NCBI GenBank assembly: GCA_964411565.1
Contig: CAYPLB010000003.1
Coordinates: 29,953-93,952, forward strand
Direction: 5' to 3'
DNA length: 64,000 nucleotides
Source of the DNA: Candidatus Woesearchaeota archaeon
GTDB lineage: Archaea > Nanobdellota > Nanobdellia > SCGC-AAA011-G17 > GW2011-AR17
Both the position numbers and the translations under genes were made by a program. The notes beneath the pieces were generated by a model. It saw only the letters and a list, made by a program, of their open reading frames with translations, was not told the origin of the DNA and did not search any database. Within the stretch, counting starts at the first letter, position 1. Every line of letters begins with the position of its first letter. Shown one piece after another: positions 57,743 to 62,519 of this stretch.

Positions 57743-57997
57743 ATGAGTCGGATATCAAAAGAAAATTTAGAAAAAATAAAAAGTAATGTTTTAAGAGTTT
57801 TATTTGATGAGTCTCCAAGATCATTAAGTGCAACGAATATTGCAAATCAAGAAGCTAGAGATAAACAATTTATTTTGAAAATCTTAAAAGATTTAGAAAC
57901 TAAAAAAATAGTTAAAAATGTTACAAAAGATTTTTCAAGAAAAAGTTATTGGATTATGCATGAAGAAGCGTATAAAAAATATAAAGAATTACTTTAA
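57743..57997 (+). CDS. small putative winged-helix DNA-binding protein
   Basis: 84 aa; ...SATNIANQEARDKQFILKILKDLETKKIV is HTH-like. Confidence 0.4.
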   Translation: MSRISKENLEKIKSNVLRVLFDESPRSLSATNIANQEARDKQFILKILKDLETKKIVKNVTKDFSRKSYWIMHEEAYKKYKELL

Positions 57998-58989
57998 TAA
58001 TTTTCTTGACCATCTTCAATATAAGAAATATCAATACTTGCTTTTTTGAATATATCTCTTGAATCTTGTGCTGCATGGTATTTTCTTAAACATACTACTC
58101 TTATTATCCCAGCATTAATCATCATTTTTGCACAAATGTAACAAGGCTCTAGTTTACAATACATTGTTGCACTATCTATAGCAATACCATTCTTTGCAGC
58201 TTGGCAAATAGCATTTTGTTCTCCATGAGAAGTTCTTACACAATGTTTGGAAGTAGATCCATCTTGATGAGTTGTTTTCTTAATCTGATGTCCGACTTCA
58301 TCACAATGAGGTAAACCTTTAGGTGAACCAGCATAACCAGTAGCTAAAATTTGTTTATCTCTCACAATTAATACTCCAGTTCTTCCTCTATCACATGTAC
58401 TTCTTTTTCCTACTTCTAAAGCTAAATTCATAAAATATTCATCCCAGGTAGGTCTTTTGTAATCAATTCTTTCTATTATAGAATCTATTTGTAAATAAAT
58501 ATCTTCTAATGGACCTTCATTTTTTATATTATAATCTGCTTTCTCCATTACTTTACCTAAACCTTTGAAAAGAATGTCTCGTTCATCTCTTTCAAAAAAT
58601 TCTTCAGGAGTTTGAGGATCTTTTTCTGATCTTCTATTGTATCTAATTTCTCTAGAAGCTTGTATTGCAATTAATTTGAATCTTTTTGTATTGTTTTGTA
58701 AATAATCTAATTCTTCAGGACTTCTAATTCCTGTAATAATAACTTTATCATGATTTTCTGCTTTTTCTAAAGTTTTCCGCATAACAATATCTTTACCATG
58801 AAGTTTTCTCCATTCATCTGCTAGAATAGACATATTCATTTTTGTTGGCTCTCTGCCTTGTTCAATTAATTCATCTTTAATTACATCTGACATATTTAAT
58901 TGAATATAATTATATTTATTGATAATATAATGAGCTACAAAATCTTTTCCAGAACGCATTAAACCAGTGATACATAATGTAGTTTGCAT
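57994..58989 (-). CDS. fusion of a P-loop (d)NMP-kinase-like domain with dCMP/cytidine deaminase
   Basis: N-terminal CITGLMRSGKD P-loop; C-terminal zinc motifs HGEQNA and PCYICAKMMINAGI (H(A/G)E ... PCxxC). Confidence 0.65.
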   Translation of the reverse strand: MQTTLCITGLMRSGKDFVAHYIINKYNYIQLNMSDVIKDELIEQGREPTKMNMSILADEWRKLHGKDIVMRKTLEKAENHDKVIITGIRSPEELDYLQNNTKRFKLIAIQASREIRYNRRSEKDPQTPEEFFERDERDILFKGLGKVMEKADYNIKNEGPLEDIYLQIDSIIERIDYKRPTWDEYFMNLALEVGKRSTCDRGRTGVLIVRDKQILATGYAGSPKGLPHCDEVGHQIKKTTHQDGSTSKHCVRTSHGEQNAICQAAKNGIAIDSATMYCKLEPCYICAKMMINAGIIRVVCLRKYHAAQDSRDIFKKASIDISYIEDGQENY

Positions 58990-59045: not shown

Positions 59046-60419
59046 TTACTTTTTCTTTAACTTACCATTAAAAGATTTAAGAATTTTTTCTTTACCAGTC
59101 CAATTTAAAGCTTCTTTGAAAACTTCTTCAATTCTCATAACAGGTATAATTTTTATTTTGTTTAATTTAGTTTTTTCAATAACCAAATCTTTTTCATTTG
59201 ATTTAGGAATAATAACTCTTTTTAATCCAGCATCAATAGCTGCTTCTATCTTTGCAGTTACTCCACCTACAGCTAATACTTCTCCTCTCACAGATAAAGA
59301 ACCGGTCATAGCAGTATCTTGTCTAACTGGAACTTGTTTTAATGCAGATATAATTGAAGTTGCTACAGCAATAGAAGCTGAGTCACCTTCTACACCTTCA
59401 GTTGATTGAACAAATTGTATGAAAACATCATATTTTTCTCTCAAATCTTCTCCAAAATATTTTAGAACCAAAGCTGAAACATTCTTTACAGCTTCTTTTG
59501 CAATCTCACCTAATTTACCTGTTGCAACAAATTCAGTTTTTTTACCACCTGGAGTTACTTCTGATTCAATAGGTAAAACAATTCCTGAAAATGCAGTTTC
59601 TCCACCAATAACAGCTAAACCATTTACTCTACCTACTCTAATTCCAGATGTAACAATTACTTCATATTTCTTTTTTGCTTCAATATATTTATCAGCAATT
59701 TGTTGTTCTAAAGTTCTTGAAAGTTTTTTAGCTTCAGTAACATGTATAGCTTTAACATATTTTGATTTATCTTCTAAAGCTAAATCTCCTGCAGCTCTAA
59801 CTAATCCACCTAACTCTCTTAATCTACAAGTTAACTTACCAGAAGTAGAAGCCATTTTTCTTGCTTCATGTATAATTAATTCAACAGCTTCTTTAGAAAA
59901 ATGAGGTATTTTTTTATCTTTTACAACTTCTTGTGCAACAAAAATAGCTAATTTATTTCTATTCTCTGGAGTATCATTCATTGTATCATTCATGTAAACT
60001 TCATAACCATAACCCCTAATTCTTGATCTTAAAGCTGGATGCATATGTTTAACAGTTTCATAATTTCCTGCAGCCATTAAAATAAAATCTGTTGGTACTG
60101 GTTCTGATCTTGTCATTGCACCACTTGATCTCTCAGATTGTCCAGTGATAGGATATTTTTTTTCTTGTAATGCTGTAAGTAATTCCTGTTGTGAATGTTG
60201 AGTTAATGTTGAAATCTCATCAATAAATAAAACTCCACCAGAAGCTCTATGAATCATTCCAGGAATTAATCTTTCATGAGGAGGAGTTCCTAATCCACCA
60301 GAATTTTTACACAAAATACCATTTGCAAATAAATTACCTGTCTCTGTTGTTAGGTTGTATAAATATCCTTTAAATGGAATTTTTTCAATTTTTACAATTT
60401 TTTCCTTTTTTAAAGTCAT
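59046..60419 (-). CDS. lonB: LonB protease C-terminal fragment: 39-aa C-intein half, then C-extein (rest of the AAA+ module plus S16 protease domain)
   Basis: Starts [39 protein letters not shown]|[30 protein letters not shown]... and continues collinearly with archaeal LonB to the protease site ([30 protein letters not shown]). Confidence 0.85.
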
Positions 60420-61459
60420 TAGATAGAAAAGTTATATTTAATTATATATAAATCCTTTGATGTTAAATTCAATAAGTCTAATGTATAGTCATGAGTATAA
60501 CCTTTATCAATTAAATCAAAATATCTTTTTTCTTTTAAATATTTAAATTCTTCAAAAATTTTATCAAGTTTTTTTCCTTTATAATCACAATAATAAAGCT
60601 TAATATTTTCTTTAAAATTGTAAATATTACTAAATTTTGTAGAAATAGGAATTCTATAAACATAATGTTCTTTTTCTTTACTATAATTTATATAAATTTT
60701 ATTTGTTTTTATCTTTTTTCTATTAAAATATTTTTTAATTTGTTTAAGGTATTTAATTATGTTTAAATCATTGTTTTTCTTAGAAGTAATACCAAATTCT
60801 AAAGAATTTAAACTAGTTCCTGAAACATGCATTTTAGGTATCCCAATCTCAGATCCAAATAAAGCACCATAGAAATAATCTTCAATTTTAAGATCTACTG
60901 AAACCCATTTTGGAATTTTCATAATAGTTTTAGTTTTTTTACCAATTGGAGAACCAAGTGCTTTAAAAAACCTTATAACTTTTCGATTTGTATTTTGATA
61001 AGACCAAGATTCACCATATTCTCCACCTTCAATTTCTCTAGAGTTTAGTTCAATATCTATTCCAAAAATAATATTTAAATCTCTTTTGAATTCATATAAA
61101 GCAAATTTCTCAGAACTTGAAAGGAAAATAGCATTAAGATTTCCAAAAATTCCTCCATCACCGAAAGAAGAACCAAATATTTTTGCAATCAAATGTATTC
61201 TTTTATGATTAAATTTTAAAGGTATTAATCTTCTTTTTTTTAGCCAATTTACAGTTTGAATAGGAATAGGTTTATGTTTTCCAGCATGCCACCATCTTGT
61301 TTTGTGATAAGGTTGATTCATTAATTTAGCAATTTTTTTATATCCAAATTCAGGATTTTCTTGTTTAATTTTTTTATATTCATAATATAATCTAGATTGC
61401 TCTTGCTGTGCTTTACTATAAGTATTGATAATATCATCTTCTTTAATTATATAATTCAT
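60419..61459 (-). CDS. free-standing LAGLIDADG-type homing endonuclease located between the two LonB halves
   Basis: [16 protein letters not shown] and [11 protein letters not shown] motifs. Own ATG and upstream TATA plus GC-rich motif. Different frame from the Lon pieces; its TAA overlaps the ATG of the downstream Lon fragment (TAATG). Confidence 0.7.
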
Positions 61460-61488
61460 ATGTTTAAATTATTGTTTTTTATATATAA

Positions 61489-61519
61489 GTGCTGCGCGCA
61501 CTCATGTCCAGTGTCCATA
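61489..61519 (-). promoter_or_regulatory. GC-rich motif (TATGGACACTGGACATGAGTGCGCGCAGCAC on the minus strand) abutting a TATA box upstream of the endonuclease gene
   Basis: Paralogous to the motif upstream of hef (33788-33811); same spacing to TATA and ATG. Confidence 0.5.
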
Positions 61520-61523
61520 CTTA

Positions 61524-62519
61524 TTAAGAATTTGTTAGAAGAATATTTCCAATTTTTAATTTTTCAGCATCAATATAATTAATATTTTTATTTTCACTTA
61601 TTGCAACTTTATGTTCAGGACTTACTAATAATTCCTTACCAGACTCAGTAATAATTTTGAATAAATTACACTCTTTGTAATGTTTATTTACAGATAAAAT
61701 CTCTGTATTTATAATTTTATTATCCTTAATAGCATTAATTACATATTTATCTTTTTCAAGGAATGTTGCTTCATAACCATCTTGTTTTATTAAGTCTTTA
61801 GTTTTTGTAAGTAAATTATTGACAAAAATTTCTATGTTAATTAAACTATTATTTATTTTTATTTTGTTACTACTTTGAAATGATTGTAAAGGATCGTGAA
61901 GTACATCTCCTAAAAGTGCACCAGCATGTGCACCAGTAGCATCATGGAAAGGTGCTTTCTTTTTCTTTGAACTATCTATTAATAATTTAGGAACAGTAGA
62001 TTGTCCACCAAGTTTTGAAGTTTTTTTACTTAAGTTTAAGAAAAGCATAAAACCAATAATAAATACCATACTTGTAATCATTGAAGCTGCATATATTACA
62101 GCAGAATCAAAAGGAAAAATTTGTCTTGAGTAAAAATAATAAGGAAGTATAGTTGCAATTAATACAAAAACAAATAATAAAATATTTTGATTTCTAAAGG
62201 AACCCATAGCATTCACTTTTGCCTGAGTAACTAAAGTCTTACCTTTTCCTCTAGGATAAGTCTTTATTAAAGGAACATTATCATCTGCAGGATTTGGAAA
62301 AGAAAGTACATCTTTAAGTTTTTCTTGAGGTAATAATTCAGCTAAAGCTTGACCAAGCATACTTTTTCCTGTACCAGGAGAACCAATAAGCAATATATTT
62401 CTTCTTTGATGTGCAGCTTTTTTAATTAAATTTACAGCACCATCTTGACCAATAACTTGACTAACAATATCTTTAGGTATTTTTATATCACTAGTATTGT
62501 TATATTTTAATGTAGACAT
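61524..62519 (-). CDS. lonB: LonB protease N-terminal fragment: N-extein (Walker A, membrane hairpin) plus 119-aa N-intein half
   Basis: QVIGQDGAVNLIKKAAHQRRNILLIGSPGTGKSMLGQALAELLP...VPKLLIDSSKKKKAPFHDATGAHAGALLGDVLHDPLQ matches LonB through the membrane insertion, then intein sequence up to the stop. Confidence 0.85.
   Translation of the reverse strand: MSTLKYNNTSDIKIPKDIVSQVIGQDGAVNLIKKAAHQRRNILLIGSPGTGKSMLGQALAELLPQEKLKDVLSFPNPADDNVPLIKTYPRGKGKTLVTQAKVNAMGSFRNQNILLFVFVLIATILPYYFYSRQIFPFDSAVIYAASMITSMVFIIGFMLFLNLSKKTSKLGGQSTVPKLLIDSSKKKKAPFHDATGAHAGALLGDVLHDPLQSFQSSNKIKINNSLINIEIFVNNLLTKTKDLIKQDGYEATFLEKDKYVINAIKDNKIINTEILSVNKHYKECNLFKIITESGKELLVSPEHKVAISENKNINYIDAEKLKIGNILLTNS

Follow-up and report, generated by a model that had tools for sequence, protein, structure and literature searches.

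The lonB locus of a Candidatus Woesearchaeota archaeon, contained in a stretch of 64,000 nucleotides (contig CAYPLB010000003.1, positions 29,953 to 93,952 of the forward strand, assembly GCA_964411565.1; 28% GC; hereafter the window), raises the question of how the gene for a conserved protease comes to be encoded in three separate open reading frames (ORFs). The outer two, ORF1 and ORF3, carry the N- and C-terminal exteins of LonB (LonN and LonC), respectively joined to the N- and C-terminal halves of an intein (IntN and IntC), and the middle one is predicted to encode a LAGLIDADG homing endonuclease (HE). In this low-GC archaeon of the DPANN type, lonB very probably constitutes, in our view, a true three-gene fractured gene, whose product would be assembled by protein trans-splicing and whose history was one of fission. 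Such a fractured gene had been proposed in the first-pass annotation of the locus, and every structural element of that reading holds, namely the colinear exteins, the HINT match across the split, the LAGLIDADG fold of the middle ORF and the lack of an indel.

The two outer ORFs match complementary parts of a single LonB. Positions 1-196 of TIGR00764, the NCBIfam equivalog model for LonB, align with residues 3-213 of ORF1, and positions 195-605 with residues 38-449 of ORF3 (E=2e-186); as the two matches meet (1-196 and 195-605), the exteins abut at one point. Pfam searches of ORF3 additionally recover Lon_C (1.8e-33), LonB_AAA-LID and AAA fragments. The components of an archaeal LonB are all present, divided between the two ORFs: the Walker A motif (GSPGTGKS) and a two-helix membrane anchor lie in the N-extein, and the Walker B motif (VLFIDE), the AAA lid and the Lon_C (S16) protease domain with its catalytic serine (GDSAS) in the C-extein. 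Walker A and Walker B are accordingly on separate polypeptides, and neither piece by itself can be an ATPase. Close intein-less LonB relatives, 70-76% identical in the N-extein, are uninterrupted at ...GDVLHDPLQSGGLGTP... and continue past the N-extein as ...HDPLQSGGLGTP, which confirms the DPLQ/SGG junction and, these relatives being contiguous there, predicts that the spliced product would be a normal LonB. The pieces in the window are also colinear, and in the same order, with LonB proteins that contain a contiguous intein (see below). The model alignment, the intein-less relatives and these contiguous proteins all place both pieces at the flanks of one LonB insertion site, as had been claimed from the sequence. 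A scan of the window with the family hidden Markov model (HMM) revealed neither a second lonB nor further inteins of this family.

The remaining portions of the two outer ORFs together correspond to one HINT domain. The family HMM matches IntN with E=7.7e-33, and a profile derived from 26 fused IntN+IntC pairs finds the contiguous KlbA mini-intein of Methanocaldococcus (Mja KlbA) as its best match (E=4.7e-17), with an alignment that runs across the split point. The same fused profile also matches hedgehog Hint domains and the CDC21, TvoVMA, NrdJ-1 and Aes123 PolB1 inteins.

Searches with the middle ORF recovered no Pfam LAGLIDADG family at E<=0.1 (chance-level matches only) and no relevant match of its sequence profile in the PDB, the only sequence-profile match being to the HE region of the NCBIfam RtcB-intein model NF038162 (2e-23); consequently, it was assigned by fold comparison. 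An AlphaFold2 model built with 24 homologues (pLDDT 94) has as its top Foldseek matches in the PDB I-Tsp061I, E-DreI, I-DmoI, I-SceI and PI-SceI, and the predicted structure shows the double alpha-beta-beta-alpha-beta-beta-alpha fold with two LAGLIDADG helices at the interface (Foldseek probability 1.0; target TM-score 0.54-0.70), in agreement with the double-LAGLIDADG protein recognized in the first pass. As in I-DmoI, I-Tsp061I, I-SceI and PI-SceI, the two helices end in acidic residues: among the 24 homologues, D101 of motif 1 (...FGDGG) is invariant and E204 of motif 2 (...FGSEIG) is conserved in at least 90%. Unlike the I-DmoI-type enzymes, to which its identity is only 11-16%, it carries extra helical domains at the N-terminus (about 85 aa) and C-terminus (about 60 aa), and is free-standing, yet apparently intein-derived. 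Going by the structural model, the middle gene is predicted to encode the intein's own LAGLIDADG endonuclease, now translated separately.

The locus shows the layout of a fractured gene, with the N-part and IntN, and IntC and the C-part, each joined in frame on one strand, and a free-standing endonuclease gene between the halves after a short non-coding spacer (64 nt). ORF1 and ORF3 share a reading frame (start coordinates 2 mod 3), and the HE ORF occupies another (1 mod 3). ORF1 terminates with TAA followed by a second in-frame TAA (TAA TAA, 61521-61526), and at the other boundary the last A of the HE stop codon TAA is the first base of the ORF3 ATG (TAATG). The frames and this overlap, like the coordinates, the lengths of the intein halves (119 and 39 aa), the DPLQ/SGGLGTP junction and the terminal KN of the intein, had all been read correctly in the first-pass annotation. 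More than 20 contigs of separate assemblies (ENA, JGI and Logan) encode exactly the proteins of the locus. Fifteen independently assembled contigs were fetched from these sources, and each matches the window with 100% identity throughout its share of the 3474-bp region, which confirms that the locus is not an assembly artefact and that its layout cannot be due to an indel error. An apparent variant with a truncated HE allele (L002) was rejected, as it proved to be a run of N (scaffold gap). The features of the locus are collected in Table 1.

Table 1. Features of the fractured lonB locus, in coordinates of the window
Feature	Position	Strand	Description
ORF1	61524..62519	minus	331 aa; LonB N-extein and IntN
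LonB N-extein (LonN)	61884..62519	minus	ORF1 aa 1-212, ends ...GDVLHDPLQ; TIGR00764 match
IntN	61527..61883	minus	119 aa (SFQSS...LLTNS); Ser1 as nucleophile (predicted); Pfam Intein_splicing and TIGR01445 matches
Spacer	61460..61523	minus	64 nt; GGACA tandem, GC-rich stretch and TATA-like box; direct sequence reading
HE ORF	60419..61459	minus	346 aa, middle gene; free-standing double-LAGLIDADG HE (AlphaFold2 model and Foldseek)
ORF3	59046..60419	minus	457 aa; IntC and LonB C-extein
IntC	60303..60419	minus	39 aa (MTLKK...GILCKN), then Ser+1; TIGR01443 intein_Cterm match
LonB C-extein (LonC)	59046..60302	minus	ORF3 aa 40-457 and stop, starts SGGLGTP; TIGR00764 match
TATA-like TTATATAAA	62543..62551	minus	32 to 24 nt upstream of ORF1 ATG; putative function
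Tandem GGACA-CT-GGACA	61505-61516	minus	IntN-HE spacer; unique in window
GC-rich stretch	61489-61503	minus	between GGACA tandem and TATA-like box
TATA-like TTATATATAA	61479-61488	minus	29 to 20 nt upstream of HE ATG
TATA-like TTTATATATAA	60442..60452	minus	inside 3' end of HE gene, 33 to 23 nt upstream of ORF3 ATG

The arrangement had been called rare, but in this lineage it is not: it is one of the states taken by a large family of inteins that occurs in 80 species or more. Homologues of the LonN+IntN piece form more than 100 clusters at 90% identity (325-350 aa, 44-66% identity), with all named hosts in Woesearchaeota or Nanoarchaeota, and 84 homologues of the HE were found, most of them free-standing (340-380 aa) and some fused to LonN-IntN. 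A scan restricted to one genome per species yielded 80 loci with the same intein at the same LonB site, mostly from Woesearchaeota and Nanoarchaeia but also from Micrarchaeota, Iainarchaeum and two closed Heimdallarchaeum chromosomes. The latter two, of the Asgard lineage (L071, CP084167.1, and L089, CP084166.1), contain the two-piece form described below, with an HE 44-47% identical to that of the window, indicating that the Lon intein element crosses archaeal phyla. When the five pieces were mapped onto the stop-to-stop reading segments of each locus, 57 loci were seen to have a two-piece layout, in which LonN, IntN and HE form one ORF that is followed by IntC-LonC, and 19 the three-piece layout of the window; in two the N-piece is absent within 4 kb, and in none of the 80 is the HE in frame with IntC-LonC. 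The chromosomal context is conserved, with Cdc6 and a PRC-barrel gene upstream of lonB in every locus examined and the PolD genes further upstream in the relatives.

HE and IntC are variably spaced in these loci, from an overlap of 25 nt to a separation of 2.9 kb, and each of the three relative frames is represented. The ATG of IntC overlaps the HE stop codon as ATGA in about 40 two-piece loci, many of these having a GAGG-like Shine-Dalgarno (SD) motif 8-12 nt upstream of that ATG; elsewhere the gap consists of a single stop codon (L033, L054) or of about 220 nt with a small ORF. Of the 72 related loci with a readable IntC, 66 place the IntC ATG exactly 39 codons ahead of Ser+1. Such varied spacing rules out a frameshift or read-through signal common to the family and indicates that IntC-LonC is initiated independently.

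The order in which these states arose can be approached through forms that are still intact. A profile search of 1.8 billion representative proteins recovered the contiguous version of this Lon intein that the first-pass annotation had recommended seeking in related genomes: at the same site of LonB, contiguous inteins are present in a 1159-aa metagenomic protein (HE match E=3.6e-103), in two others of 1070-1115 aa, and in the 1108-aa LonB of the cultured Thermococcus nautili (WP_042693108.1), where the intein ends ...VKN/SGGLGTP. The first 15 or so residues of the HE ORF in the window are homologous to the in-frame linker between IntN and HE in the two-piece and contiguous forms. In a neighbour-joining tree of the C-exteins, all three-piece loci form one clan (185/200 bootstraps), whose neighbour is the main Woesearchaeota two-piece group (182/200), and the two-piece sequences of Heimdallarchaeum and Micrarchaeota, together with L019 and L085, fall outside both. 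The most economical reading of these patterns is a succession from contiguous to two-piece to three-piece forms, followed by loss or dispersal of the HE, and fission of an intein with an HE, not invasion by an HE, is the most likely origin of the fractured lonB. The earlier suggestion that the locus is a snapshot of the origin of split inteins is supported in this respect and acquires a direction, the three-piece form being apparently derived from a two-piece form with the HE still attached to IntN. Under this scenario, a contiguous HE-containing Lon intein, as still found in T. nautili, would first have been broken between HE and IntC to give the two-piece form of most relatives; in the clade of the window a second break would have separated IntN from HE; and in some relatives the HE would subsequently have been lost or the pieces would have drifted apart. 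A point on the other side is that the trees are neighbour-joining only and take their rooting from taxonomy.

The unrooted tree is by itself compatible with a root on the three-piece stem, as would be expected if a free-standing HE had invaded a mini- or split intein (step II of Dassa et al.), leaving the form seen in the window as the ancestral one from which the two-piece and contiguous forms arose by later fusion. This is the published model for fractured genes (PMC2677866). It is at odds with the alignment of the first 15 or so residues of the HE ORF with an in-frame linker, and with the distribution of the layouts, as two-piece forms occur in Woesearchaeota, Micrarchaeota, Iainarchaeum and Heimdallarchaeum, whereas three-piece forms are limited to one clan. 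Contiguous forms with a homologous HE are, moreover, found in distant archaea including Thermococcus, and LAGLIDADG domains are the usual intein-resident endonucleases. We therefore allow invasion only a small chance, and the evidence at this site, in departure from the model of Dassa et al., favours fission of an HE-containing intein.

Several side observations bear on the later separation of the pieces. In five three-piece loci (L018, L029, L052, L070 and L079), the HE gene is separated from LonN-IntN by about 2 kb, or no LonN-IntN is seen within 4 kb of it; the distance of LonN-IntN from the HE in such relatives is the start of a genomic uncoupling of the halves. In L099 (6001-8537), and likewise in L100, the HE is missing, and 158 nt, in which nothing is left of an endonuclease ORF, separate LonN-IntN from IntC-LonC. 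Together with the extra genes of L098 and the HE loss of L096 (see below), this form would represent later stages at largely syntenic loci.

How the two halves of LonB might be joined is indicated by the residues at the splice junctions. Position 1 of the intein is Ser in the window, and among the 78 related loci with a readable N-junction no residue other than S, T or C occurs there; block B follows the T-x-x-H pattern, being mostly T-P-E-H in the relatives, with a His that is invariant in alignment A2; and block G reads ...CKN/S in the window, with the terminal Asn and Ser+1 invariant in every locus where this junction is readable. We propose that piece 1, with Walker A, the membrane anchor and IntN, and piece 3, with IntC, Walker B, the lid and the protease domain, would meet via their intein halves, which would associate into one HINT fold and carry out class-1 protein trans-splicing: an N-O acyl shift at Ser1, transesterification by Ser+1 and cyclisation of the terminal Asn. 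Splicing would yield a normal LonB, about 630 aa long and joined at ...HDPLQ-SGGLGTP..., and the archaeon, whose genome is reduced, would need trans-splicing to bring together the Walker A and Walker B halves of its apparent Lon protease.

A number of observations weigh against this reading. Trans-splicing, cleavage by the HE and the function of the promoters are all deduced from sequence. An AlphaFold model of the fused IntN+IntC, computed from the single sequence, is of low confidence (pLDDT 54), so that its significant structure matches, almost all of them to inteins or hedgehog Hint domains, offer weak support. Block B of the window is S-P-E-H where the relatives have T-P-E-H, and the penultimate residue of the intein is Lys and not the canonical His. 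Charge complementarity of the DnaE type is absent between the halves in the window (IntN +2, IntC +4). The mean net charge of IntN is +11 in three-piece loci (18 loci, including the window's own contig) versus -1.6 in two-piece loci, and that of IntC is +3.6 to +5 in both. Finally, the pairwise ratios of nonsynonymous to synonymous substitution (dN/dS), which stay well under 1 (0.11-0.28) in every part, whether extein, intein half or HE, are to be taken qualitatively only, dS being saturated (at least about 1 in nearly all usable pairs).

A penultimate His is common in inteins, though not obligatory. That the intein of the window ends in KN and not HN was observed correctly in the first-pass annotation, but it is not anomalous: wherever the junction could be read, the residue before the terminal Asn is one of K, S, R and A, with H never seen, and the contiguous Lon intein of T. 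nautili has Lys there as well. Being family-wide and common to contiguous inteins of a cultured Thermococcus, this substitution is less damaging to the splicing reading than it would first seem. These same two features, the penultimate Lys and the Ser in place of Thr in block B, could alternatively be taken to mean that the Lon halves work without covalent ligation, the intein halves no longer splicing but acting as a dimerisation module by which the pieces with Walker A and Walker B are kept together; there are known cases of homing endonucleases splitting a gene, with products that come together again non-covalently, such as the NrdA of Aeh1 cited in Dassa et al. 2009 (PMC2677866). However, a pure docking module would not conserve splicing residues, and these are all retained over 80 species (S, T or C at position 1, with terminal Asn and Ser+1 invariant), and the contiguous relatives with the same KN/S ending must splice to yield LonB. 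Non-covalent assembly is hence very unlikely in our estimation, and trans-splicing is the preferred reading.

Comparison across species also speaks to the state of the individual pieces. Mean pairwise identity is highest for LonC (70%) and IntC (65%), followed by the HE (54%) and IntN (43%), so that the HE is more conserved than the intein half to which it is fused in the two-piece loci, and identities of the HE are correlated with those of the exteins (Spearman 0.59). The HE retains its catalytic acidic residues and, judging from the dN/dS values, appears to be under purifying selection. A decaying pseudogene, a sequencing or assembly error, or a frameshift, stop read-through or ribosomal bypass that yields one contiguous intein-containing protein is barely credible as the explanation of the locus: an error-prone assembly of AT-rich DNA could produce two changes of frame in 1.1 kb, and a single stop codon separates HE and IntC in two relatives, but the independent assemblies are identical, both halves keep about 70% identity with dN/dS well below 1 across species, the window lacks a second lonB, the ATG of IntC is conserved and preceded by an SD-like or TATA-like motif of its own, and recoding was rejected as no single signal fits a spacing and frame that vary so widely among the relatives, sometimes with whole genes inserted.

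Separate expression of the three pieces is suggested by promoter-like elements before each of them. Among the 59 ORFs of at least 120 aa in the window, 24 (41%) have a TATA-like box 18-42 nt upstream, compared to 5% of random 24-mers, and only five have an SD-like motif, from which most genes of the window appear to be leaderless. Each of the three ORFs would be served by its own TATA-like box about 25-33 nt before the ATG, at about -32..-24 for ORF1, -29..-22 for the HE and -33..-23 for ORF3, in the leaderless layout usual for this genome. The box within the 3' end of the HE gene, TTTATATATAA, is a candidate promoter of the IntC-LonC piece, and a conserved CATTAAC-TTTAAAA motif is found at the same distance before the IntC-LonC ATG in the relatives. 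The spacer between IntN and HE in ten other three-piece species contains the same elements as in the window, namely a tandem GGACA or CGACA, a GC-rich stretch and TTTATAAA about 25-35 nt before the ATG, which suggests that the spacer is a putative operator and promoter module. The frequency of TATA-like boxes and this conserved module lend support to the earlier remark that the HE gene has its own TATA/GC-motif promoter. There is also the possibility that the conserved HE, whose gene has repeats of its own resembling an operator, has come to regulate how much of the C-terminal piece of LonB is supplied.

The phyletic distribution of the element among the closest relatives of the window suggests that it is not stably inherited. 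In the neighbour-joining tree, three-piece, HE-less and intein-less sequences together form a clan with support of 192/200, and the LonC closest to that of the window belongs to an intein-less allele, its distance being 0.18 as against 0.29 for the nearest three-piece locus. As intein-less and HE-less forms are nested inside the three-piece clan, the element has been gained or lost among close lineages. Candidate targets of the HE are the joined exteins of the window, CATGCTGGT...CCTTTACAA/TCTGGTGGA..., and the empty site of L101. An HE with intact catalytic residues in the presence of empty targets fits, without proving, ongoing homing of the whole cassette, which the HE would most likely still carry into the intein-less lonB alleles that are present in the nearest relatives. 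We propose only tentatively, and with some doubt, that the cassette, comprising the end of IntN, the spacer with its putative promoter and GGACA operator, the LAGLIDADG gene and IntC, is still mobile and brings about a one-step fission of an intact lonB upon homing, and that the family constitutes the first natural series of split-intein origin. If so, gene fission would be horizontally transmissible, and the series from a contiguous intein through an HE-bearing two-piece form and a three-gene locus to an HE-less split intein would imply that split inteins arise by in-place breakage of HE-containing inteins. A viral origin or vector was considered and rejected, as no relative of the HE was found among the viral contigs of IMG/VR.

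Fractured genes were defined by Dassa et al. 2009 (NAR 37:2560; PMC2677866) from 26 GOS loci, mainly of phages, with GIY-YIG or Vsr-like endonucleases and spacers of 27-51 nt, and it was stated there, as a prediction only, that LAGLIDADG and HNH enzymes "could" fracture genes. The first-pass annotation, which cited this work, was right as to the kind of arrangement; what the paper describes, however, are phage loci with GIY-YIG/Vsr-like endonucleases, the LAGLIDADG type being merely predicted. In common with the loci of that study (gp41-1, NrdJ-1, IMPDH-1), the window shows a conserved enzyme gene that a split intein breaks at the canonical point of HE insertion, the order of N-part with IntN, short spacer, free-standing endonuclease gene and IntC with C-part on one strand, and apparent control elements upstream of the endonuclease gene; HE-less variants likewise occur in both sets (gp41-7 there, L099 here). 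The two differ in that the GIY-YIG enzymes and those that are Vsr-like are not found inside inteins, whereas the LAGLIDADG protein of the window is homologous to those in contiguous inteins of the same site, and in that a chromosomal archaeal housekeeping protease in conserved synteny, with no relative found in viral contigs, is affected here instead of mainly phage genes. The prediction of 2009 that LAGLIDADG enzymes can form part of fractured genes appears to be borne out, and the arrangement is extended from phages to cellular archaea and to a protease.

Of the inteins already known, the closest are those of LonB itself, which is among the intein hosts of Euryarchaeota, with 10 LonB inteins counted by Novikova et al. 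2016 (PMC4760082). The window shares with such contiguous inteins, as typified by T. nautili, the site HDPxQ/SGGLGTP, a homologous LAGLIDADG (profile E=5e-45) and the ...VKN/S type of ending. The contiguous forms are single ORFs that splice in cis, whereas in the window the same element is distributed over three ORFs, with added start and stop codons and promoter-like elements. The split inteins of cyanobacterial DnaE and of Nanoarchaeum equitans PolB resemble that of the window in the structural position of the split, in an IntC of about 35-40 aa and in belonging to an essential enzyme that needs trans-splicing. Unlike the window, where the halves are adjacent and the HE is retained, they have no endonuclease and their halves are at separate loci; furthermore, the DnaE halves have opposite net charges, which those of the window do not, and the window has Ser1 and Ser+1 rather than Cys.

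Natural split inteins have been described as a few mini-inteins, and the conserved insertion site of HE domains as an unsolved puzzle (Beyer et al. 2019, PMC6801210). Both the origin of split inteins and the occurrence of HE domains at one conserved intein site are open questions (PMC6801210, PMC2677866), to which the present family contributes one largely syntenic site with nearly every intermediate, namely contiguous, two-piece, three-piece, three-piece with inserted genes, HE-less and intein-less forms, so that the order of events becomes testable by ordinary phylogenetics. The family also comprises dozens of natural, diverged split inteins with Ser/Thr rather than Cys as catalytic residues; split inteins of that class are currently sought for protein ligation in oxidising conditions (PMC13014065). 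Neither a split or fractured Lon intein nor a split intein of DPANN archaea turned up in a search of the full-text literature; most subscription journals lie outside its coverage, and a prior description is possible. An archaeal, chromosomal fractured gene of the LAGLIDADG type, and a large family of split LonB inteins, are thus apparently undescribed.

Beyond the principal layouts, individual loci of the family show further inserts and breaks. In four loci (L030, L057, L077 and L088) a conserved ORF of about 75 aa (MKPAKSFPLTKAEQRKY...) fits precisely into the gap of about 224 nt that separates the HE stop from the IntC start, the clearest case being L057, where it has ATGA overlaps on both sides; longer inserts in L043 and L092 are related to it. 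A different conserved ORF of about 98 aa (MINISLYLYGKPEWD...) occupies the same position in the three-piece loci L016, L079 and L098 (8236-8532), and in L098 it is one of two extra genes between HE and IntC, the other being a 186-aa P-loop-like ORF. None of these small ORFs (about 75, about 98 and 186 aa) belongs to a Pfam family. In L095 (1515-3037) the frames of LonN and IntN-HE are offset within IntN in what is otherwise a two-piece-like lineage (N-terminus CFIDSNIYV...), either through an independent break or through a sequencing error.

Some loci carry additional inteins. L020 (1038-3827) and L067 (1415-5044), as well as, in partial form, L026 and L035, have an extra contiguous LAGLIDADG intein in the Walker A loop of LonN (GTGK/C...HN/S), and a lonB of this type accordingly combines one cis-splicing and one split intein. 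In L096 (6001-10712), and also in L097, lonB is in three extein pieces, and two trans-splicing events would be needed to produce LonB: the DPLQ/SGG split intein has lost its HE, with an unrelated 161-aa membrane ORF there instead, and a second split intein (Cys1 ... HN/Cys+1) cuts the AAA domain at EAVP/CDFILVAAG, with its own LAGLIDADG fused to its N-half.

With regard to neighbouring genes, a giant ORF upstream of lonB in L001 and L010, outside the window, was considered as an intein-laden PolD and rejected, since it encodes a Cys-rich surface-type protein. Directly 3' of lonB in the window (57994-58989, minus strand) lies a gene whose product, 331 aa long, fuses a nucleotide-kinase-like P-loop domain (AAA_17/AAA_18, DNMK) to a dCMP/cytidine deaminase domain; this gene is kept in every strain-level contig that reaches beyond lonB.

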